A DNA stretch of 32,000 nt from Xylanibacter ruminicola 23 (GTDB lineage Bacteria > Bacteroidota > Bacteroidia > Bacteroidales > Bacteroidaceae): positions 1,950,001 through 1,982,000 of the forward strand of contig NC_014033.1 in the NCBI RefSeq assembly GCF_000025925.1. The letters are read 5' to 3'. Below are positions 2,019 to 24,151 of this stretch, piece after piece. The notes under the pieces are model-generated. The model made no database searches, was not told where the DNA came from, and saw only the letters and a list, made by a program, of their open reading frames with translations. Position numbers and translations under genes: made by a program. The first letter of the stretch is position 1. Each line of letters starts with the position of its first letter.

Positions 2019-4355
2019 ATGAAAAGATTATTGGTATTTTGTATATTCGCATTGGCCATCGTTTCCGAGGCTGGCGCGGTACTGAAGGAGAAGGATCTGG
2101 AACAGACGTTGGGTATTCTGCGTACTGAACTGAAGCAATACAACAACGAACTGGACCGACGTTCGACAGCACGCAGGGATCGCGCCAAACGACTGATACA
2201 GCAGTTGATGGGCACCATGAAGCGAGCCGACCAGAACGCACTGATGCTGTACTCGCAGCAGCAGGATAATGTGTTCGACCTGACTTATGCCTGTCATGAG
2301 GCCACACAGCAGTATCGCGATTTTCATAGACAGCAACTGCCTTTTACCAGTTTCCTGGAGAAAACCGAGGGTGAGATTGTCAGATACGACAGTCTGATAA
2401 ACCATCTGCAAGGTATCCCTACACGCATTATGACCAAATATGGTACCAGCAATCGCGACTCTTGTCTGGTACTGGCCCAGAGCATCCGTGAGAAACTGGA
2501 GGTGAACGCCAATATACTGCGTAGAAACATCTATCTGTACACAAAAGCCGAAAACCGTTTGAGCGAGCTGAACGAGTACGCCCAGAAACGCTATTCGGAC
2601 ATACAGCAGAGCATATTCATTAATGGTGGCGACAGCTACCCCACCCTGCTAAAGAACTTAGGTCGCCGATGGCAACAGATGACCGACAACATACAGAAAA
2701 AGTACAGCTTTAATGCCAATGCCAACTCACAATGGAGTCCGCAGTGGATATTCGGTATGTTCCTGGGTATCGTGTTCTACGTCATCGTATCTATCATACT
2801 CAACCTGCTGTTCTTCAAGTTCATACTCCCCAACAAGGTAAAGACCGAGGAGTTCAAGAAAAAGCGTGTATGCATTATCATGGCTACCACTACGGTAACC
2901 TTTGCCATCATACAGGGACTGGTAATCAACAACTCTAATCAGAACTTCCTGATTATGGCCTCTGGACTGCTGGTAGAGTACTCGTGGCTGCTGGGCGTGG
3001 TATTATTCTCGTTGCTTCTGCGTGTGAAAGGCGACCAGATAAAGAGCGCCTTCCGTATCTACGCACCATTGATTGCAGTAGGATTCATAGTTATCGGATG
3101 TCGCATCATCCTGATTCCTAACGAGCTGGTAAACCTGGTACTGCCTCCTATCCTGCTGCTGTGTGCACTGTGGCAATGGCTGGTAATACGTCGACACAAT
3201 CAGAACATTCCACGTAGCGACATCTTTTACACATACGTATCGCTCATCGTGTTCGTAGCTTCGGTAGTATGCTCGATGATAGGTTACACGCTGTTTGCCG
3301 TACAGCTCATCATCTGGTGGATTATGCAGCTCACATGTATCCTCACCATCACCTGTATCAGTCGTTACCTGGAGATATACGCTAAGCGTAAACGACTGAC
3401 CGACAAGCCCATAACGCAGACGTGGTGGTACTATCTGGTTGAAAAAGTGGCCATGCCTGTACTGGGTGTACACTCCATCCTGCTGAGTATCTACTGGGCA
3501 GCCAAGGTGTTCAACCTCACGGATATGTGTGTAAGAATATTCATGTACCCTGTTATCGATACGCCTAACCTGCAGATATCGCTGGTAAAACTGATTATGG
3601 TGATTAACTCGTGGTTCCTGTTCCGTTACGTATCCAAGACTATTCTGGCATTCCTGAAGATGCACTATCAGATAAGCGATCCATCTACAGCCGCCAGCAA
3701 GGAGGTGATGGGACGCAACGTAATACAGGTGCTGGTATGGGGCATCTGGCTGATGTTCTCGCTATCGCTGCTTAACATCAGTATCTACTGGATGCTTGCC
3801 CTGGGAGGCGGCTTATCAACAGGTATCGGTTTCGCCTCGAAAGATATCATCGAGAATATCTACTATGGCGCCTCGCTGATGGCAGGACGCATAAAAGTGG
3901 GCGACTGGATTGATGTGGATGGTACCATGGGTAAGGTGGTATCTATCAGCTACACCTCAACGGTGATAGAATCAATTCAGGGTGAGGTGATTACCTTCCA
4001 GAACGCCCAGTTGTTCACTAAAAATTACAAGAACCTGACGCGTAATCATGGTTATGTGCTCACCACTATCCCATTCGGTGTGGCCTATGGCTCGAACCTG
4101 AAAGAGGTAACCAACTTGGTTGAAGCAGCTGTAAACGCCATGCACAACCAGTATATCGATCCTGAGAAACAGGCCAAGTGCGTGGCTACCGAAATGGCCG
4201 ACTCGAGCGTGAACTTCAAGCTGGCTATCTGGGCCGAGGCTCCTAAGCGCACATACGTTACCAGCGAGGTACTTAAGTGCGTTTACGACACGCTGAACGA
4301 GCATCACATCTCGATCCCATTCCCACAGCACGATGTACACATAATCAAAGGATAA
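2019..4355 (+). CDS. Large mechanosensitive ion channel, MscS family (MscK-like architecture)
   Basis: It has a signal peptide, a coiled-coil N-terminal ~230 aa and about 10 TM helices. The C-terminal MscS pore/beta-domain signature is present (LSTGIGFASKDIIENIYYG...GDWIDVDGTMGKVVSISYTSTVIES). Confidence 0.9.
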   Translation: MKRLLVFCIFALAIVSEAGAVLKEKDLEQTLGILRTELKQYNNELDRRSTARRDRAKRLIQQLMGTMKRADQNALMLYSQQQDNVFDLTYACHEATQQYRDFHRQQLPFTSFLEKTEGEIVRYDSLINHLQGIPTRIMTKYGTSNRDSCLVLAQSIREKLEVNANILRRNIYLYTKAENRLSELNEYAQKRYSDIQQSIFINGGDSYPTLLKNLGRRWQQMTDNIQKKYSFNANANSQWSPQWIFGMFLGIVFYVIVSIILNLLFFKFILPNKVKTEEFKKKRVCIIMATTTVTFAIIQGLVINNSNQNFLIMASGLLVEYSWLLGVVLFSLLLRVKGDQIKSAFRIYAPLIAVGFIVIGCRIILIPNELVNLVLPPILLLCALWQWLVIRRHNQNIPRSDIFYTYVSLIVFVASVVCSMIGYTLFAVQLIIWWIMQLTCILTITCISRYLEIYAKRKRLTDKPITQTWWYYLVEKVAMPVLGVHSILLSIYWAAKVFNLTDMCVRIFMYPVIDTPNLQISLVKLIMVINSWFLFRYVSKTILAFLKMHYQISDPSTAASKEVMGRNVIQVLVWGIWLMFSLSLLNISIYWMLALGGGLSTGIGFASKDIIENIYYGASLMAGRIKVGDWIDVDGTMGKVVSISYTSTVIESIQGEVITFQNAQLFTKNYKNLTRNHGYVLTTIPFGVAYGSNLKEVTNLVEAAVNAMHNQYIDPEKQAKCVATEMADSSVNFKLAIWAEAPKRTYVTSEVLKCVYDTLNEHHISIPFPQHDVHIIKG

Positions 4356-6198: not shown

Positions 6199-9100
6199 AT
6201 GAAGACTATAAAGAAAATACTAATCGCCTTAATGCTCATCATTCCACTAGGAGTGGTGGCTGCCTATCTGTTTAAAACACTGGAAGCCCGCGATGGACTG
6301 ACATCCAGTCAGGTGAACTGCATATTAAAGGACTCTCGAGGTTACATGTGGTTTGGTACCCCAGCAGGCTTGTACCGCTTCGACGGATACACCTTCCGTA
6401 ACTTCCAGAGCGACTCACAGAACGGTAGCTCGCTGAGCGATAGCTATATCAACTCTATCCAGGAAACACTCGATGGCAACCTGCTCATCGAAACAGCCTC
6501 AGGCTACTGCATCTACCACCCACAGACAGAGAGCTTTGAGCGCGATATGAAGCAAGCCTTTGCACGTATGGGTATCGAGACCATCCCATCGGTGGTATAT
6601 GTAGATAAGCACAAGAATCTTTGGGGAGCCATCCCTAACAAGGGTGTGGTTTGCTATAACCAGCAGCAGCAAACACTGCACGAGTTTGGTTATACCGACG
6701 ATGCTAAGGGTGTGCCACAAGGCGTGGTTTGCTCAATCAGTGAATGTAAGGAAGGCGCCCTGATAGTTTACGACGATGGTAAGATAGCCTGCTGTGATGT
6801 GATGCACCAGCAGAGCACACTCTGGGTAAAAGAGGGAATACCTGCACTGAGAGATCATCGCACCAAATCGCTGCGTGCCTACGCCGACGTGAATGACAAC
6901 ATCTGGTTGTATGGACAGGGAACTCTGGTGATGTACGACAAGCAGAAGGACACTTGGGACTACACCATGGGCGAGAAGCTGGGTGTAACCGGTCTGGGTG
7001 TGGATCGTAACATCAACGGCATGGCCAGTAGCGCTGGTAGCATCTGGGTTGGTAGTGACCAGTTAGGACTGATTCGCTTTGACCCCAAGACCTTCGAGTA
7101 TCAGGAGGTTCAGCCTAAGAACATCAACGAGCAGCAATGGGTAAAAGACCATACCAGCATCCAGAGTCTGTATATGGACGATACTGGTTTGCTGTGGGTA
7201 GGTACCGAGAAATCGGGTGTGGCCTATACCGGTAAGTATATCTACCGCTTTGGTTCCGACCTGATGGGCGATGTAACCGCTATGGCACAACATCCCAATG
7301 GCACTATCTGGTACGGTACAAGCGACCGAGGTGTGATAGGTTTCGATGGCAAGTTGGCCAGTTTGAAGGTGTCGTGCATGAGCAACACCCCTGATGGAAG
7401 TATCTGGATTGGTTCGAAGCGTAATGGTCTGACACGAATCAAGGATGGCGTATCAACCATCTACTCGGTATCGAAGGACAGCGTTCGCACCATTATCGAC
7501 GACCATATCAACGCCCTGACATGCGATAAGATTGGTAACCTGTGGATAGCCACCAACGGTGGTCTGCAGGTGTACAACCCACGTATGAACTCGTTCTCGA
7601 GCTACACACGCGAGAACGGCAAGTTGAGCACCAACAGCATTACCAGCTTGTTCTACAAGCAGGATGCCAATGCCAACAACCTGTTGGTAGGTACCAGCGA
7701 GGGACTGATTATCCTGAACCTCTCGACAACCGAGAAGAAGGTTCTGACAGGTAACAGCACCAACCTGAAGAGCTTTACCAACAACTACATTACACAGATA
7801 TTCCAGGATTCGCGCGGACTGATTTGGGTTGGTACTCGCGAGGGACTGAACATACTGAACTTAGAGACCGACGAGCTCGACTATCTGACCGAGAAGCAGG
7901 GTTTGTGTAATAATAACATCTGCGGTATTGCCGAGGATAAGAACCACTGCATCTGGGTAACCACAAGCCGTGGTGTGAGCCGTATTGTGATACAGCGTAA
8001 CCACGAGGACGGTGTGAACAACTACGGTCTGTACAACTACAGCACAGCCGATGGTTTGCAGAGCAACGAGTTTAATACCGGTGCTATCCTTACCAAACAG
8101 GATGGCGAAGTATTGCTGGGCGGACTGTATGGTGTGAACTGGGTACTGCACAGAGATGGTGCCGAGAAGGAGGACCTGCCACGTGTGATGCTCACCCAGC
8201 TGTTTATTGGCGAAGAAGAGATTATTACCGGTCATGAGTATCATGGCAAGGTGATACTTACTCAGGCTCTGAACGAAACCAGCCGTATCGATCTGGCTCA
8301 CAACCAGAACACATTCAGCATCAAGTTTGCTGCTGGTAACTACAACCAGAGCGAGCGCCTGCAGTTTATGTACTGGATGGAAGGTCGAGACGAGGACTGG
8401 CATCATGGTGACGCGCTGTCGCATGGTGTAAACTTCAACAACCTGTCGGCAGGAAAGTACTATCTGCACGTAAAAGCCATCAACGCCGAGGGTGCAGTAA
8501 GTAACCAGGAGCGTGTGCTTGAAATCAACGTAGAGCGCCACTTCCTGCTGTCGTGGTGGATGATAACAGCCTATCTGATTGTGCTGGCAGTAATCATCTA
8601 TTTCTGGCGCATAGGTATCAATCAGCTTAAAGCCATCAAGCACCGTAAGGAGGCTGTGATTAAGGAACTGCAGTTGCAGCGCGAGGAAATTAAGGCTGCG
8701 AGCGACGACTTGCGACAGCCTATGGCTCGTATGACCTCGATCATCGGTAACCTGTCGGAGAAAGAGAAAACGCTTGAGGAGAAAGAGCAGCTGAATGCCC
8801 TGCACTCGCAAATGCTGCAGATTATCACACGTGTGGCTGATATGCAGATGAACCTGGAACACCCAGAGGAGCGCGCTAAGAATATGGTTCAGGACCGTCT
8901 GACCATCAACAGTAAGGGTGAGATTGAGTTGCCAGAGATTGCCAGCGACGTTCTGACATCAGAATCTACTCACTCACGTGCTGCTATCGACTCGCCTACC
9001 TCGAAGTTCACCGTTATCATGATTGATGACAACGAGGAGTTCCTGGAGTTTGCTGGTGCACGACTGAGATTTGTTTATAACTTCCACGTTTATAACGACA

Positions 9101-18518: not shown

Positions 18519-20450
18519 ATGAATAAAAGATTTTTAATTATTACTATCCTTGCGGCAGGACTGACCAACACCAGCTGGGCCGACAAACAAGAGAAGCTTG
18601 CATCGCCTAACGGCAAAATCGTAGCCAACATCAATATTGGCAAAGAGTTAACTTACAGCGCCTCGTTCAACGGCGAACAGATTCTGAAAGATTGCCCCCT
18701 TAGCTTGCAAGTTGGACAGGAATTATTGGGTGTAAACCCAAAGTTAAGCAACACAAAACGTACTAAGATTGATGAGCAGATACGACCTGTAGTGCCTTTA
18801 AAACAGACCGTAGTGCCCAACAAGGCAAATGCCTTGACGCTCAACTTCAAGGGCTACTGCGTAGAGTTCAGAGCCTACGACAACGGTGTGGCCTATCGCT
18901 TTATTATAAATAAGAAAGGTGTTGTAGATATCGTGAGCGAAGGCATTAACTACCATCTGCCCAAAGCCTTCGAGGCTCACATCTCGAAGACTCGCAACTT
19001 CAACACCTCGTACGAACAGCCTTACACGCACATCAGCACAGCTCAGTATAAGGCCGACGACGAGATAACCTATCTGCCAGTACTGCTCGAAAGTCCCAAA
19101 GGCACCAAGGTACTTATCTCCGAGAGCGATGTGCGCGACTATCCCCACACTTTCCTTAAGAGCACGGGCGCCAATGGTTTTACAGCCGTTCATCCCAAAT
19201 CGCCCGAAACATGGGAGCCACGTGGCGACCGAGGTTGGACCATCACCAAAGAGCGCAACTGCATTGCCCGTACCAGCGGACAGCGCAGCCTGCCCTGGCG
19301 TTTTGCCGTTATCGGCAACGATGCCACGATAGCTGCCAACCAGATGGAACTGGTGCTGGGCGGCAAGTGCGAACTGCAGGATGTATCGTGGATTAAGCCC
19401 GGACAGGTTAACTGGGACTGGTGGAACCACTGGACAGTATGGGATGTGGACTTTGAGTCGGGCATCAACAACGCCACCTACAAATACATCATCGACACAG
19501 CCTCAAAGTTTGGCGTAGAGTATGTGCTACTCGACGAAGGTTGGAACAAACGCGTAGAAGATCCCTTTACCTACAGCGACAATATCGATGTAAAGGAGCT
19601 GGTAGAGTATGGTGCCCAGAAACATGTAGGTGTCATCCTATGGCTGGCGTGGCTCACCGTTGAGCAGCATCCCGCCCTTATTAAGCATTACGCCGATATG
19701 GGCGTGAAGGGACTGAAGATCGACTTTATGGACCACAGCGACCAGTGGATGGTGAACTTCTACGAGCGAACAGCCCGCGAGTGTGCCAAGCATAAGCTGC
19801 TGGTTGATTTTCATGGCTCGTTCAAGCCAGCAGGGTTAGAGCAGCGCCTGCCAAACCTTATCTCGTACGAGGGTGTGCGTGGCTTGGAACAAGGCGGAGG
19901 ATGCAGCCCCGAAAACAGCATCTGGCTGCCATATATGCGCAATGCCGTTGGCGCTATGGACTTTACGCCAGGCTCAATGCAGAATGCTCAGCCCGAAGAC
20001 AATCATGGTACAGGCTCGCTACCGATAGGCGGTGGCACTCGTGCTTATCAGATGGCCCTTTACGTGTGCTTTGAGAGCGGACTGCAGATGCTGGCCGACA
20101 GTCCTACCCGCTATCTGCGCGAACAGGAGTGCACCCAATTCATAGCCTCGGTACCCACCACATGGGACGAAACCCGCGTATTGGCTGCCAAGGCAGGCGA
20201 TTACTACGTAGTAGCCAAGCGCAAAGGTGCAAAATGGTTTGTAGGCGCCATCACAGGCAGCAAGCCGCAGGATATCACTATCAGTCTCGACTTCCTGACT
20301 CGTCCTGCCATGCTCACCTCCTTCCGCGACGGACGCAACGCCCATCGCATCGCCGTAGATTACAAAAAGGAGACTCAGGAGGTGAATCCTGCCACCACGC
20401 TCACCCTCCATCTGGCACGCAACGGCGGCTGGTGCGGCTCGATAGAATAG
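18519..20450 (+). CDS. Glycoside hydrolase family 97 (alpha-glucosidase/alpha-galactosidase type)
   Basis: The start is set at MNKRFLIITILAAGL, a signal peptide. The ~640-aa body carries the YVLLDEGW and GLKIDFMD motifs typical of GH97. Confidence 0.85.
   Translation: MNKRFLIITILAAGLTNTSWADKQEKLASPNGKIVANINIGKELTYSASFNGEQILKDCPLSLQVGQELLGVNPKLSNTKRTKIDEQIRPVVPLKQTVVPNKANALTLNFKGYCVEFRAYDNGVAYRFIINKKGVVDIVSEGINYHLPKAFEAHISKTRNFNTSYEQPYTHISTAQYKADDEITYLPVLLESPKGTKVLISESDVRDYPHTFLKSTGANGFTAVHPKSPETWEPRGDRGWTITKERNCIARTSGQRSLPWRFAVIGNDATIAANQMELVLGGKCELQDVSWIKPGQVNWDWWNHWTVWDVDFESGINNATYKYIIDTASKFGVEYVLLDEGWNKRVEDPFTYSDNIDVKELVEYGAQKHVGVILWLAWLTVEQHPALIKHYADMGVKGLKIDFMDHSDQWMVNFYERTARECAKHKLLVDFHGSFKPAGLEQRLPNLISYEGVRGLEQGGGCSPENSIWLPYMRNAVGAMDFTPGSMQNAQPEDNHGTGSLPIGGGTRAYQMALYVCFESGLQMLADSPTRYLREQECTQFIASVPTTWDETRVLAAKAGDYYVVAKRKGAKWFVGAITGSKPQDITISLDFLTRPAMLTSFRDGRNAHRIAVDYKKETQEVNPATTLTLHLARNGGWCGSIE
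20427..20449 (+). repeat. Direct repeat copy 1 (GGCTGGTGCGGCTCGATAGAATA) at the GH97 3' end
   Basis: This 23-nt string is identical to 23503-23525. Confidence 0.9.
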
Positions 20451-20523
20451 CACTAACTAACAGTTTTAAGATTACATATCTAAAATTATCTCCGCCAAAC
20501 TTGTTTTTTTCGGATATTCTTTT

Positions 20524-20531
20524 TATCTTTG
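20524..20531 (+). promoter_or_regulatory. -7 promoter box (TAtcTTTG)
   Basis: TATCTTTG lies 35 nt upstream of the ATG at 20566. Confidence 0.45.
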
Positions 20532-20565
20532 TGCCCAAGAAAAAAAACAATCTAATATTAATCCT

Positions 20566-23334
20566 ATGAAAAAGGATATCCTAATAGCCGGTAGCCTATT
20601 GCTGACAGGCTGTGCCGACATAACAAACAATGTGGCAGAGAGTTTTAATAACAACCTGATTGCAGAAAACCGCTATCAGATGATTCTGGATGGCCTGCAG
20701 GTAACACTCATCATCACCCTTTGCGCCACGATTCTCGGCACACTATTAGGCGGACTGGTGTGTTGGATGCGCATGAATCGCCACAAATGGCTGCGACACA
20801 TAGCCAGCGCGTATATCGACCTGATGCGAGGCACCCCCGTACTGGTGCTGCTCATGCTGATGTACTATGTACTAATGGCGCCAATAGATGCCACTGGCAT
20901 CGTGGTAGCCATCGTGACCTTTGCCCTGAACACCGCAGCCTACATCAGCGAGATGCTGCGCACCTCCATCCAAGGCATTGACCGAGGACAGACGGAGGCT
21001 GGACTGGCATTGGGCTACACACAACGACAAACATTCATCAGAATCATACTGCCACAGGTAGTCAAGGCTGTCATGCCCGTCTATCAGGGCGAGGTAATAA
21101 GTCTGCTGAAAGGCACAAGCATCGTGGGCTACATCGCTGTGAACGATATGACACGAGCATCCGACCTGATACGCTCACGCACCTTCGACGCCTTCTTCCC
21201 GCTCATCGTCACAGCCATCATCTACTTCCTGATAGCCTGGCTCATCGGCCAACTGCTCACTGCGCTGCTGCAACGACAGCGGACCAAAGCCACAGCTGCA
21301 GCCGTCATGCTGACCCTGTCGGGGCTTGTGGCCTACGTGCCTTCGATACTAACAGATGCGCAGGCAACGACAGCAGACACAACCGACGCACCACCAGCCA
21401 TCAAGGCACTATCGGGCAAGCGCGTAGGTGTCATCATCGGCAGTATCCAAGATATTGCAGTAAGCACGATGGCGCCCGATGCCGACATACTGCGCATGAC
21501 CACCACCACCGACATGATGGCTGCCCTAGAGAACGGCAAGGTGGATGTGGCAGGCAGCGAGAGCCTCACACTGATATTCAACAAGGAACTGGCTGACAAG
21601 GTTGACTCCGTAGGAGCCGGACTTACACCGATTCCTATTGGCGCATGCTTCAACCAGAAAAATACTGAGCTGCAGCAAGACTTCAACAGTTTCCTGGCAG
21701 AAATCCGACGCGACGGCACCTATCTGAAAATATTCGACCGCTGGCAGAAATCCGACAATCCGTCGGCTATGGACATTCCACAGCAGCGCGGCACTGGGCG
21801 CACCGTGCGCATAGCCACCTATCCTGCCATGCCTCCCTTCAACTTTATCAACTCCGGCAAACCATCGGGCCTGGAAATCGACCTGCTGACAGAGTGGGCC
21901 AACCGCCGCAACTGGCAACTGGAATTCCTGGTAATGGACTTTGCCGCTCAGATACCCGCTGTACAGACAGGCAAGGCCGACATGGCCATGGGTGCCATCA
22001 GCATCACCGAAGAGCGACAAAAACAGGTACTCTTCTCCAATGGCTACATCGAGTCGCACATCGTGCTGATCACACGCAAGAATGAAGCATCAATTATCAC
22101 GAATCCGTCATACTCTTCCAGCACAGAGCACCCCACGAGCCCCTGGCCGTGGATGGTAGCAATACTTGTCATTGCCGGTTGCGGGGATTGGTTCATCGTT
22201 CGCCGCAAGCGCTACAGCCAGCGGCAGCCTACTACCAACGCACTGGAGCAGCCGAAGGATGAGAAGGAGGCCGTCATCAGCATCGCCCACATGAAGAAGA
22301 GCTATGGCACGTTTGATGTGCTGCGCGACATCAACCTTGATGTGCATCGGGGCGAAGTGATCTCTGTCATAGGGCCATCCGGCACAGGTAAAAGCACCTT
22401 CCTGCGCTGTCTTAACCTCCTTGAGCAGCCTACTGGCGGGAGCATTCTCATAGGTGGAAACGACATACTGGAACGCAATGCCGACGTGCCGCTATTACGG
22501 CGACGCATGGGTATGGTGTTCCAGTCGTTCAACTTGTTCAATGGCATGTCGGTGCTCGACAATATCTGTCTGGCGCCCATGCAACTGTTAGGAAAAACAC
22601 GGGAGGAAGCCGAGAAACGCGCTCAGCAACTGCTTGAGATGGTAGGACTGGCCGAGCGTGCCACAGCCATGCCCGAGCAACTTTCCGGCGGACAGAAACA
22701 GCGTGTGGCCATAGCCCGCGCACTGGCCATGGAGCCGGAGATATTGCTCTTTGATGAGCCAACCTCAGCCCTCGACCCCACCATGGTGAGCGAGGTGCTG
22801 GGCGTAATGACCAAACTGGCACGTGAGGGGATGACGATGATTGTGGTGACACACGAGATGCGATTTGCCCGGCAGGTGAGTAGCCGTGTACTATTCTTTG
22901 CCGATGGCGTCATCTATGAGGATGGCACCCCCGACCAACTCTTCGACCATCCGCAGCGCGAACGCACCCGACAGTTCATCCAGCAGATACACGAAATGCA
23001 CTTCCTCATCGAGACCAAGCAATTCGACTGGTATGCTATGACGGCCCAGATGGAGCAGTTCTGCCTGCATTATAATCTGCAGCGCCAGCAAATCTTTGCG
23101 GTGCTACACGTCATCGACGAGACACTGACCATCCTCGGCACTCACCCCAATACACACCTGACGCTGGCTTATTCTGAACAGGAAGACACGTTACAGTTCA
23201 TCGTCAATAGTCCTCATGCCGTCGATAGCAGCTTATTCAGCCAAGAAAGTGATGACATAGCTGTGACCATCCTGCGCAACTTCAGCCGCAACATCCATGT
23301 AGATGGCAGCACCCTCCGCATCACCATCAAATAA
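20566..23334 (+). CDS. Single-polypeptide polar-amino-acid-type ABC importer: permease, TM, permuted substrate-binding domain, TM, ATPase and an unknown C-terminal domain
   Basis: It has a lipobox-like N-terminus (LLLTGC) and a His/Glu/Gln/Arg-type permease with an EAA loop ([22 protein letters not shown]). The SBP_bac_3-like segments come next. The NBD carries Walker A (GPSGTGKST), signature ([15 protein letters not shown]), Walker B ([13 protein letters not shown]) and H-loop (VVTHEM). Confidence 0.88.
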
Positions 23335-23432
23335 GCACTTTTTGGCGGAAATACGCAATGATATGATCCAGTCCCTCGTCGAGCGACACCTTGGGCTCCC
23401 ATCCTAATTCGCTTGGCAAGTGTGATGTCGGG
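23327..23432 (-). pseudogene. 3' remnant of an NAD-dependent epimerase/dehydratase (UDP-glucuronate decarboxylase-like) gene, 5'-truncated and frameshifted
   Basis: The minus strand reads PDITLAK, then a frame change, then [27 protein letters not shown]-stop. This is the characteristic C-terminus of extended SDR sugar epimerases/dehydratases, and nothing lies upstream of it. Confidence 0.5.
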
Positions 23433-23436
23433 ACAT

Positions 23437-23526
23437 TACAAAAAGCAGGTGCAGCAAGTAACCCCATCCACCCAACTCACGCTCCACTTAGTTCGCAACG
23501 GAGGCTGGTGCGGCTCGATAGAATAA
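23437..23526 (+). pseudogene. Orphan 3' fragment of a GH97 gene (last 29 codons plus stop)
   Basis: It translates to YKKQVQQVTPSTQLTLHLVRNGGWCGSIE-stop, versus YKKETQEVNPATTLTLHLARNGGWCGSIE-stop for the intact gene at 20361-20450. I hand-aligned 68/90 identical nt. Confidence 0.8.
23503..23525 (+). repeat. Direct repeat copy 2 (GGCTGGTGCGGCTCGATAGAATA)
   Basis: This 23-nt string is identical to 20427-20449. Confidence 0.9.
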
Positions 23527-23545
23527 CTGGAAGGTAGGAAGTTAA

Positions 23546-23649
23546 CTACATAACTACATAAAATCGTTCAAAACACCTGTATATATAGGCATTACATGAG
23601 CTTTACTAACTACATAAAAACTACATTCTAACTACATAAAACTACATAG
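23546..23649 (+). repeat. Left arm: 2 abutting plus 4 phased CTACATAA boxes
   Basis: Boxes lie at 23546-53 and 23554-61. After a 43-nt spacer, four more start at 23610, 23621, 23632 and 23642, spaced 11/11/10 bp. Confidence 0.85.
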
Positions 23650-23656
23650 CATGAAT

Positions 23657-23694
23657 AGTAGCGTAAAAATTCTCTAGAGAATTTTTACGCTACT
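23657..23694. repeat. Perfect 38-bp palindrome AGTAGCGTAAAAATTCTCTAGAGAATTTTTACGCTACT
   Basis: I verified by hand that the sequence is its own reverse complement. It is centred on TCTAGA. Confidence 0.95.
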
Positions 23695-23731
23695 TAGGCA
23701 GAGAAAAATAGTTAGTACGGCACTAAGCCGA

Positions 23732-23749
23732 AAATTCTCTAGAGAATTT
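23732..23749. repeat. Perfect 18-bp palindrome AAATTCTCTAGAGAATTT, sharing a 19-nt core with the 38-bp palindrome
   Basis: The string AAAATTCTCTAGAGAATTT occurs in both palindromes. Their centres are 65 bp apart. Confidence 0.95.
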
Positions 23750-23810
23750 CTAATCGACCAATAAGGAAAAAGATAGCGAGTAAGTTAAAGAGTTTGTTAT
23801 AGTAAGGCAG

Positions 23811-23915
23811 GTAATTACTTTTTGTGCATCGAAAAGTTACTTTTTGCATCTCAAAAAGCTACTTTTTGAGCAACGAAAAGCTACTTTTTGCATCTCGAAA
23901 AGCTACTTTTCGCAG
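23811..23915 (+). repeat. Five tandem direct repeats (iteron-like) with an exact 22-bp period; consensus GAAAAGCTACTTTTTGCATC(nn)
   Basis: The TAC of the core TACTTTT(T) falls at 23816, 23838, 23860, 23882 and 23904. Repeats 2-5 carry the small dyad AAAAG-yTA-CTTTT; repeat 1 is degenerate. Confidence 0.9.
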
Positions 23916-23920
23916 GTATC

Positions 23921-24021
23921 ATGTAGATTTTATGTAGTTTTATGTAGTTTTTATGTAGGTCGAAAAATACAAAAAACCCTTTGTGTATGCGGGGTTTAAG
24001 CGATTTTATGTAGTTATGTAG
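23921..24021 (-). repeat. Right arm: 4 phased plus 2 abutting TTATGTAG boxes, mirroring the left arm
   Basis: ATGTAG occurs at 23921, 23932, 23942 and 23953, spaced 11/10/11 bp. After a 42-nt spacer, TTATGTAG occurs at 24006-13 and 24014-21. Confidence 0.85.
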
Positions 24022-24151
24022 GTCAATTGACAAAAATAAATTTGCAAATTCAAGCAAAAGAGGATAGAAATACGGTGCACGAAACAGTTTTACTCAAACG
24101 TTTACATACGATTTTTGGGGGTGTGGTGATACAATGTTGGCAGAAAGTGCG

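Follow-up and report, generated by a model that had tools for sequence, protein, structure and literature searches.

Staphylococcus aureus pathogenicity islands (SaPIs) encode Rep proteins which are self-loading helicases that act also as initiators, with a C-terminal winged helix that binds iterons of 5-6 nt (PMC9371898). The SaPI origin of replication (ori) consists of 6-12 iterons found beside rep, with an AT-rich centre and at least two iterons per side, these in opposite directions, and in SaPI5 the primase and Rep are fused (PMC9371898). The subject of this analysis is a 476-bp non-coding module found at positions 23546-24021 of a 32-kb stretch of the chromosome of Xylanibacter ruminicola 23 (contig NC_014033.1, positions 1,950,001 to 1,982,000), with ‘the window’ used here to describe that whole stretch. 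The module, we would say with about even confidence, may be an orphan copy of an iteron-type, origin-like binding region, i.e., one belonging to a BT4734/VapE primase-helicase (here, Pri-Rep protein) and acted upon in trans. This reading was absent from an earlier note on the same DNA, and is the one that the comparative data favour.

Phage P4 supplies a further point of reference. Its primase-helicase, gp-alpha, possesses a C-terminal origin-binding domain which reads octamer repeats that are present in several copies and in both orientations, and a second cis site, crr, is found kilobases from the P4 ori. With the viral origins that are served by superfamily 3 (SF3) helicases, such as the GAGGC pentamers of simian virus 40 (SV40) large-T or the origin of papillomavirus E1, inverted short boxes place two hexamers head to head. 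The iteron origins of theta plasmids (pSC101, R6K, P1, RK2) consist of direct repeats of 17-22 bp that are bound by winged-helix Rep monomers, with DnaB of the host being recruited. Those iterons double as autoregulatory operators, and iteron specificity defines incompatibility. The SaPI ori is found downstream of rep and is of roughly 100-200 bp.

Among Bacteroidales repeats there is BrickBuilt, a transposable element of the miniature inverted-repeat type (MITE) from Porphyromonas gingivalis, consisting of a leader, a minisatellite and a tail, and for which the available part of the description reports bidirectional promoter activity (PMC4596501). BT4734-family proteins are described as archaeo-eukaryotic primase (AEP)-type primase-polymerases of mobile elements (PMC5862659, PMC11724360). 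In the literature reached, no description was found of a cis site or of a cellular role for BT4734 genes and the HU-HIG genes with which they are paired, and the box and palindrome sequences discussed below led to unrelated papers only. New here, then, are the composite architecture of tip, spacer, array, double palindrome and dyad, the link of that architecture to the paired BT4734 and HU-HIG genes, the variety of box specificities seen around an invariant palindrome, and the existence of gene-less orphan copies.

The module, its family and its home locus

The outermost 21 bp of the module, CTACATAACTACATAAAATCG at 23546-23566 and CGATTTTATGTAGTTATGTAG at 24001-24021, are perfect reverse complements of each other, as the earlier note had claimed and as both the sequence and a repeat finder bear out. 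Twelve boxes are present, six per arm and in mirror image, nine of them exact copies of CTACATAA and three of them degenerate, with one or two mismatches (CTACATTC at 23621, CTACATAG at 23642, and CTACATGA on the minus strand at 23919-23926). Start-to-start box spacings are 8, 56, 11, 11 and 10 on the left and 8, 55, 11, 10 and 11 on the right, which agrees with the paired tips, the spacers of 43 and 42 nt and the four boxes per arm at 10-11 bp that the note had described. Across the window as a whole there are 10 exact matches to CTACATAA, versus 0.92 +/- 0.95 expected and with none of 100 shuffles reaching 10; the tenth of these matches (24420) falls within an open reading frame (ORF) of 77 amino acids (aa). 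The two arms are 76% alike over 103 bp, spacers included. Folding of the top strand gives a single long hairpin (z = -11), a result that adds nothing beyond the inverted-repeat design itself. The ORFs which overlap the module are mechanical only, at 51 and 58 aa, and its interior had rightly been described as being without an ORF. Scans of the window with Rfam, at gathering thresholds, and for tRNAs identified no family and no tRNA.

The module is a member of a family. A pattern scan for its core palindrome, AAATTCTCTAGAGAATTT, identified at least 120 loci in species-representative genomes, nearly all of them in Prevotellaceae, whose genomes contribute several contigs each. Some 25 of the loci display the layout of the window copy, with two palindromes 65 bp apart between mirrored tip and array boxes, and the order of the unit is box pair, spacer of about 45 nt, phased array, two AAATTCTCTAGAGAATTT palindromes, 22-bp dyads, mirrored array and mirrored pair. 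BLASTN of the module against PLSDB plasmids and INPHARED phages returned no match. Sister modules keep the layout with other boxes, that is, GCCTACA, AACTACA, ACACCCT, GGCACCC, GACTGAC, ATGACAT, ACACTAC, CGACATA, GCCTACAT and others. Tip and array boxes share one sequence inside each module and change together between sister modules, a covariation by which one cognate, fast-evolving reader protein would be implied for each module type.

The 19-nt tip of the window type matched 43 metagenome loci, of which about 31 carry AACTACAT modules, these in at least 14 flank contexts. The module thus is multi-copy in rumen Prevotella, as the note had proposed be looked into. Among 12 copies from different contexts the window base is kept at 91% of box positions, 99.5% of palindrome positions and 44% of other positions, and spacers and interior segments often are wholly replaced. 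This is the opposite of free decay, and the decaying relic that had been offered as an alternative does not survive it, the boxes being so much better conserved than the non-box, non-palindrome positions and the module being multi-copy. Comparison instead supports what the note had suggested, i.e., a discrete, functional, non-coding unit, bounded by inverted repeats, with predicted binding sites on one helical face and with its protein supplied in trans. Outward TAnnTTTG motifs flank many of the sister modules, and other copies precede NusG/UpxY-like and polysaccharide-export genes. An automated search for outermost inverted repeats mostly caught flanking divergent promoters, not element ends.

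Two further observations concern the reach of the palindrome and of the orphan copies. At L312 (3200-3400) and at 41 related loci (L311-L425) a single AAATTCTCTAGAGAATTT occurs with TCAGAAAGG and GATGACA repeats; these palindromes are found about 280 bp 3' of multi-copy genes of AAA-ATPase_like plus PDDEXK_9 type, in Prevotella and Hallella as well as in a bin with the label Paratractidigestivibacter, and they represent a second repeat family with the same palindrome. At L334 (3040-3120) an orphan module of AACTACAT type is found about 70 bp from the apparent 3' end of a tRNA/tmRNA gene (GGAGCTGGAGGGAGTCGAACCCTCG, opposite strand).

The commonest context of the module is the gap between divergent BT4734/VapE and HU-HIG genes, as seen in 14 of 36 AACTACAT loci and in seven species genomes. 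Genomes with this home locus include X. ruminicola Ga6B6, GCA_900142855.1 and GCA_900112275.1. One of the two genes encodes a 704-aa protein, which carries BT4734-like_N (AEP primase family), VapE-like, DUF5906 and DUF3874 domains, and the other encodes a HU-HIG protein of 132 aa. Canonical copies of the module (L335, L484, L486 and 14 metagenome loci) are found 76-100 bp upstream of the primase-helicase gene, with TAnnTTTG -7 motifs present just outside both module tips. The canonical module of X. ruminicola, which has AACTACAT boxes, aligns colinearly with the window copy over the whole length between the tips (77-78% identity), with similarity ending within about 5 nt of the left tip and fading over about 25 nt on the right. 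Because of this colinearity, and of similarity that stops at the tips, the window module is an orphan paralogue of the home-locus region.

The association of module and gene pair is a deep one. Canonical loci of other species have different box types, yet their proteins are 64-84% identical, with the first ~80 and the last ~120 residues the least conserved parts of the Pri-Rep protein. On a human faecal contig whose homologue is 32% identical, mirrored CAAACTAA arrays surround three palindromes 77 bp upstream of the gene, and HU-HIG there follows the BT4734/VapE gene. A single search returned 2,753 close homologues of the BT4734/BF3469-family protein. Residues 400-646 of the canonical neighbour (P0121) match residues 114-363 of SaPI1 Rep1 (PDB 7PDS), that is, its VapE domain matches the ATPase core of an initiator, with E=9e-9 as a single sequence and 4e-10 with a 30-sequence profile. 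NCBIfam was uninformative. A virome contig, MT836775.1, was considered as a possible encapsidated mini-replicon and rejected, having no terminal repeat and carrying chromosomal genes.

SaPI Rep and other SF3-like initiators that load themselves suggest, by analogy, how such a region might function. The Pri-Rep protein would use a sequence-reading domain to bind the 8-nt CTACATAA boxes, which, phased at 10-11 bp, would be displayed on one helical face and be opposed on the two arms. Two oligomers could then assemble face to face across the A+T-rich interior, presumably with DNA melting and the start of replication to follow. Accessory proteins, the HU-HIG partner perhaps among them, would bind at the pair of conserved palindromes and at the 22-bp dyads. 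As no replication gene adjoins the window copy, that copy would be bound, or would fire, only in trans, i.e., given a box-matched Pri-Rep protein encoded elsewhere in the genome.

A number of points weigh against this origin-like reading. By domain scan of the window there is no replication gene beside the module, and no orthologue from the window’s own strain is found among the best 120 homologues of the Pri-Rep protein. The match of P0121 to 7PDS stops short of the winged-helix C-terminal domain of Rep, and an AlphaFold model of the Pri-Rep protein, made from a shallow alignment, had a predicted local distance difference test (pLDDT) score of 34. No DnaA box is present in the module, and its 270-bp centre, though at 57-73% A+T against some 51% across the window, does not exceed the arms in A+T; the interior (63-70% A+T) is not markedly the more AT-rich part. 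Unlike the SaPI ori, the module is found upstream of its gene, is of 430-650 bp and includes extra conserved palindromes. An origin that fires does not, moreover, sit easily with several origin-like sites dispersed over one chromosome. The home locus has the look of a stable chromosomal islet of two genes more than of an obvious mobile element, and the arrays consequently could be operators of two divergent promoters. Association counts, lastly, include orthologous loci, so that independent events are fewer than loci.

The window copy and its chromosomal site

Resemblance of the window copy to other copies begins at 23538, 8 nt outside of the left tip, with an outer left stretch, GAAGTTAA (23538-23545), that is common to L441 and of which (G)TTAA is common to the canonical L484, L486 and L335. 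The left tip (23546-23566, plus strand), i.e., the left arm of the inverted repeat, consists of two abutting CTACATAA boxes plus AAATCG and is kept as CTACATAACTACATAAAAT across the 14 or more contexts. It is followed by the left spacer (23567-23609, 43 nt, with CCTGTATATATAGG), the length of which is kept among copies (about 45 nt), the sequence of which diverges, and which is partly mirrored in the right spacer, and then by the left array (23610-23649, plus strand), with boxes CTACATAA, CTACATTC, CTACATAA and CTACATAG at 11, 11 and 10 bp. A perfect 38-bp palindrome (23657-23694) encloses the 18-bp core, AAATTCTCTAGAGAATTT, at 23667-23684. The second copy of the core palindrome (23732-23749) is found 65 bp after the first, a spacing that recurs in the ~25 loci noted above, and the segment between the two palindromes, CTTAGGCAG...TTAGTACGGCACTAAGCCG (23695-23731), is conserved in L484, L486, L335, L392, L412 and L441.

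Rightward of the palindromes is an A-rich linker (23750-23815, 63-70% A+T) that is poorly conserved between copies, and then about 4.4 tandem 22-bp units (23816-23912, plus strand), each with the dyad CGAAAAG-N3-CTTTTCG/TG, the copy number of which varies, with fewer in L484 and L335. The right array (23919-23958, minus strand) consists of four inverted boxes at 11, 10 and 11 bp and displays whole-box insertions and deletions (indels) between strains. The right spacer (23959-24000, 42 nt) includes a small hairpin, AAACCC...GGGGTTT, and diverges in sequence between copies. The right tip (24001-24021, minus strand), the right arm of the inverted repeat as seen both in the sequence and with the repeat finder, consists of CGATTT plus two abutting inverted boxes. 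The right flank, GTCAATTGACAAAAATAAATTTGC (24022-24045, plus strand), possibly is part of the unit and carries an outward Bacteroidetes -7-like motif, TAAATTTG, at 24037-24044; flanks of the form GT(A/C)nATTGAC...A/T-run recur in other copies. As an extent for the module, 23546-24021 therefore holds for the inverted-repeat bounds but not for the similarity to other copies, which starts earlier, as noted, and may extend about 25 nt past the right tip.

Housekeeping genes fill the window (PGK, GH97, an ABC fusion transporter, methylmalonyl-CoA mutase, a hybrid two-component system and others), to which X. ruminicola GCA_019973335.1 is 100% identical. A domain scan of the large ORFs of the 32-kb window identified no recombinase, transposase or Rep domain in any of them, just as the earlier note had said. 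The module sits between the 3' end of GH97 and the gene for the 77-aa protein, which is conserved in rumen Prevotella, and about 20 nt separate the TAA of a duplicated GH97 3' fragment from the start of the module, again as had been described. That duplication brackets an insertion: the GH97 3' end is directly repeated over 91 bp (20359-20449 and 23435-23525; 77% identity), and between the repeats is an inserted segment (20450-23434) which is the ABC permease/solute-binding/ATPase fusion gene (20566-23334). Without this insertion, as in L436 and L437, GH97 runs straight to the module, and in L433 and L434 there is an extra Rce1-like gene at the insertion site. At 23336-23440 on the minus strand there is also an orphan C-terminal gene fragment (...GWEPKVSLDEGLDHIIAYFRQKV), which by eye resembles the tail of a NAD-dependent epimerase/dehydratase and may represent a second rearrangement scar beside the GH97 fragment. 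L439 is without 23392-23481.

The module is present at this site, and always in the same orientation, in eight of the ten contigs that encode an identical 77-aa protein, and contigs with the module here vary by whole boxes (8, 10 or 11 bp) and by whole 22-bp units. As seen on comparing 23546-24021 with L001-L008 (alignment A1), L006 and L008 have lost a tip box of 8 bp and an array box of 11 bp, L001, L004 and L007 have gained a 10/11-bp box, and L003 has lost two 22-bp units, as a 44-bp deletion. Differences between strains thus are mostly indels of whole units, which suggests that boxes have slipped or been exchanged unequally. Upstream of the 77-aa gene, five related Prevotella species have a conserved block that begins at the equivalent of window position 24089, and the DNA ahead of it is unrelated and without boxes. 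For this reason the module is, on comparative evidence, an acquisition of the X. ruminicola lineage rather than an ancestral part of the promoter. The first positions of the conserved block, 24089-24110 (TTTACTCAAACGTTTACAT, including the palindrome AAACGTTT), open that block whatever precedes it, are a recurrent synteny break point, and may be an operator.

Two other X. ruminicola contigs (L438, 394-9840, and L439) hold in the gap otherwise occupied by the module a 9.4-kb island, the genes of which encode WYL/WCX, an AHH nuclease-toxin, a 395-aa unknown, HigB/HTH_3, unknowns of 218 and 229 aa and a 762-aa BT4734_N protein. The extremities of the island are inverted triple boxes of another type (AACTGGGATACTGGGATTTGGGA; ACTGGGAT type), and they coincide with synteny break points, with one starting at the GH97 stop codon and the other ending 14 nt ahead of position 24089. 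Inside, a 27-mer, GAATAACTGGGATACTGGGATTTGGGA, is directly repeated (L438 394-420 and 5298-5324), and an internal set of arrays encloses an AT-rich stretch (L438 5741-5890). A domain scan of the island identified no transposase or integrase domain, and PHROGs had no family for the 77-aa protein, the 762-aa protein or the phage neighbours described in the next section.

From a different perspective, the iterons could double as inverted ends, with modules and box-tipped islands together making up one previously unrecognised class of Bacteroidales element that is duplicated or mobilised in a replication-driven manner, with no classical transposase or integrase. This we consider to be doubtful and offer only tentatively. 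The 0.5-kb gene-less copies would then be non-autonomous ‘origin-MITEs’, moved or amplified in trans by a box-matched Pri-Rep protein and possibly also amplifying or re-wiring neighbouring chromosomal genes.

Phage counterparts and competing explanations

Arrays of similar design are found in phages and other mobile elements. In IMG/VR contigs, mirrored (A)ACTACA[T/C] arrays occur within replication modules, adjoining DnaG-type primases (L037, L058), VapE/PriCT/Toprim proteins (L038, L119) or a BT4734_N primase (L169), and in L126 and L154 genuine DnaA boxes are present inside the arrays. The element of L169 consists in full of CTACATAACTACATAA, an AT-rich stretch of 72 bp and TTATGTAGTTATGTAG, that is, two inverted box pairs. 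A gut phage family, represented by contigs of about 33 kb, carries mirrored AACTACA[C/T] boxes in a module of 190-280 bp (L013 6947-7142, L037 5451-5734), the centre of which has a GAAAAGCTACTTTTG dyad like that of the 22-bp repeat of the window. That phage module is found between a DnaG-type primase or HTH_3 gene on the one side and, on the other, genes for small unknowns, an S49 protease and a ~520-aa protein. It was therefore considered as well as a cos or pac site, given its position before the S49 protease and a capsid-like gene, a candidate rejected for want of an adjacent terminase and given that the other contexts are replication genes. A generic three-box pattern was noisy when applied to viral contigs, catching 12-bp coding repeats in giant-virus bins.

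The G+C-rich contig L199 (IMGVR_UViG_2773857929_000001) carries two paralogous modules (2832-3169 and 7248-7511), 4.4 kb apart, which differ in box, CTACAC vs CTACAT, and the arms of which face away from a centre of about 110 bp (CCCTATACGTATATATAAGGAG). Each is upstream of a large unknown ORF (510 and 698 aa) and beside a D5-like primase-helicase, with an integrase 5 kb off. The outward-facing arms raised the possibility of attP as against attL plus attR, which was rejected given no integrases and no split forms. Small phage proteins of 126-145 aa that are in essence a DnaA domain-IV-like HTH (Bac_DnaA_C) are encoded directly next to AACTACA/CTACATAA arrays in L058 (2637-3074) and L169 (7437-7817 and 1370-1795), and the box TGTAGTTAT agrees with the DnaA box TGTGGATAA at six of nine positions. 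Host DnaA as the reader of the boxes was nevertheless rejected, as one host protein cannot account for many box types, and is noted for the phage cases only. Near the phage array of L093 there is a weak match to ParB_N (E=0.004).

Four other explanations may be set against an origin-like binding region. The module could be a MITE-like, non-autonomous mobile unit, its box pairs serving as ends and its inner arrays as further sites at which a trans-acting transposase or recombinase would bind, an idea that takes up the multi-site ends of the earlier note, that is compatible with the origin-like reading and which we view as unlikely though deserving of some weight. It would account for dispersal over the flank contexts, for orphan-canonical homology that ends within about 5 nt of the tips, for five related Prevotella species being without the module at the orthologous site, and for the filling of that same site by a box-tipped island with a BT4734_N gene that ends at synteny breaks. 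One metagenome-assembled genome, in addition, holds two copies that are 90% identical, and terminal inverted repeats with repeated sites are present, i.e., the 21-bp perfect repeat and the arms that are 76% alike. No target-site duplication is seen, however, in the flanks of about 20 copies, with the window’s GTTAA and GTCAA agreeing at 4/5 positions and not being repeated elsewhere. The termini are (A/C)CTACAT rather than TG...CA, and no transposase, integrase or rve/DDE domain was identified in any neighbour scanned or in the island, all of which speaks as well against the Tn7/Mu-type ends to which the earlier note had likened the arms. Copies are 67-80% alike, which indicates no recent burst, and the centre of the family is better conserved than its ends, the reverse of ordinary MITEs, if in part as an effect of the palindrome-based search. 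No true empty site with exact boundaries was recovered among the orthologous sites compared. As integrase arm sites, i.e., the attL and attR clusters of a tyrosine-integrase element without an interior, or as a centromere of the ParR/ribbon-helix-helix type, both of which had been suggested, the module is a very unlikely candidate. The mirrored layout does resemble attP arms, the palindromes (7-6-7 around TCTAGA) look by eye like core-type sites, L334 adjoins a tRNA-like 3' end, and the L199 module has its integrase at 5 kb. Beside none of the chromosomal copies examined, however, is there an integrase or a par gene, with the latter absent beside the window and canonical copies alike; direct repeats of a core site were not observed in the flanks, and the module is intact rather than split in home locus and phages.

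Should the module act instead on transcription, then its arrays and palindromes would be operators for outward flanking promoters, with HU-HIG, the Pri-Rep protein or some unknown protein as regulator, and an orphan copy would place the 77-aa gene under the same control. The module of the home locus does sit between divergent genes, with TAnnTTTG -7 motifs outside of both tips, TAAATTTG is found 15 nt past the right tip of the window copy, facing the 77-aa gene, and other copies precede the NusG/UpxY-like and polysaccharide-export genes already mentioned. Autoregulation of rep via the same repeats, furthermore, is usual with iteron plasmids. At least 12 sites plus palindromes plus dyads over 0.5 kb nonetheless far exceed what known operators need, some copies are found between convergent genes or at 3' ends (L392, and the left side of the window copy), and the counterparts in phages form part of replication modules that have AT-rich centres and DnaA boxes, such that we consider a transcriptional control region to be distinctly unlikely. 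The earlier note also raised the possibility of an inverton, flipped between the 21-bp inverted repeats by a recombinase encoded elsewhere. Perfect 21-bp repeats do flank 434 bp upstream of a gene, and some sister modules are at capsule-type loci (NusG-like, Poly_export). Within 23546-24021, though, there is no promoter motif, TAnnTTTG being present in the window at 24037 and 24152 and on neither strand inside the module. All ten orthologous contigs are colinear, in one orientation, as assemblies rather than reads and hence with low power, and the flipped junction had no matches in metagenome contigs, a weak test with only two native contigs present. The inverted repeats, moreover, are the outermost members of arrays which are seen also in non-invertible phage layouts. 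The probability that we assign to inversion is close to negligible.

Significance and comparison with known systems

BT4734/BF3469-family PrimPol-helicase plus HU-HIG pairs are very common in gut and rumen Bacteroidales. A conserved iteron module beside BT4734 genes supplies a testable model in which these proteins would be initiators of the Rep type with a cognate origin, in a SaPI/PICI-like manner (PICI, phage-inducible chromosomal island). Varied boxes around a constant palindrome are, in addition, a natural series of protein-DNA specificities, one from which orthogonal replicons might be developed for Prevotella and Bacteroides, genera that have few such tools. Orphan copies near ordinary genes could mean amplification in situ, titration of initiator or a new route of dispersal for non-coding DNA. 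Were the modules mere operators, they still would be a new and widespread regulatory repeat family of Prevotellaceae.

With theta plasmids the module shares helix-phased arrays of initiator sites beside a rep gene, but its boxes are of 8 nt and mirrored, and the canonical copy is beside a helicase-initiator. With SF3 viral origins, an AT-rich stretch adjoins inverted boxes, and the minimal phage version in L169 looks alike; those origins, however, are eukaryotic-viral and have four boxes in about 30 bp, so that the resemblance is one of logic only. That a replicon can have more than one iteron cluster has a precedent in the P4 crr, as may be compared with L438 and L199. P4 nevertheless differs in primase class, its repeats are unrelated, and it is without either the mirrored layout of tip, spacer and array or orphan copies.

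In appearance, the nearest published Bacteroidales repeat is BrickBuilt, going by the available part of its description (PMC4596501). It too is intergenic, multi-copy, non-coding and ended by inverted repeats, with an internal 23-nt tandem repeat of variable number that may be compared with the module’s 22-bp repeats, and the bidirectional promoter activity reported for it may be compared with the outward promoter motifs at the module flanks (PMC4596501). That part of the source, with the comparison being by description only, describes no mirrored phased boxes, double palindrome or link to replication genes (PMC4596501).

Both by its logic and by the ancestry of its protein, the Pri-Rep-ori replicon of SaPIs and PICIs is the closest of the known systems. 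Differences are found in the canonical neighbour of the module, which has a BT4734 AEP primase and a HU-HIG partner gene, and in the module itself, which has tip pairs some 45 nt off the arrays, two highly conserved palindromes and 22-bp dyads. The home locus, furthermore, is a chromosomal islet in which no integrase or packaging genes were seen, and gene-less orphans are dispersed in the chromosome. Because it does not adjoin a rep gene, the window copy is not, strictly speaking, to be classed as a SaPI-type ori. The likenesses nonetheless are several. SaPI and PICI origins have short iterons of 5-8 nt in 6-12 copies, with opposed sets around a centre (PMC9371898; PDB 7PDS, 7OLA), and the module has 12 boxes of 8 nt, as six plus six opposed. 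Those origins are beside the initiator gene, which is true of the canonical copies and not of the window copy, and their iteron sequence is island-specific and matched to Rep, with which the differing box types of the module at orthologous loci may be compared. The canonical neighbour, finally, shares with those systems the VapE/Rep ATPase core and, like the PriRep5 of SaPI5, a primase fusion.

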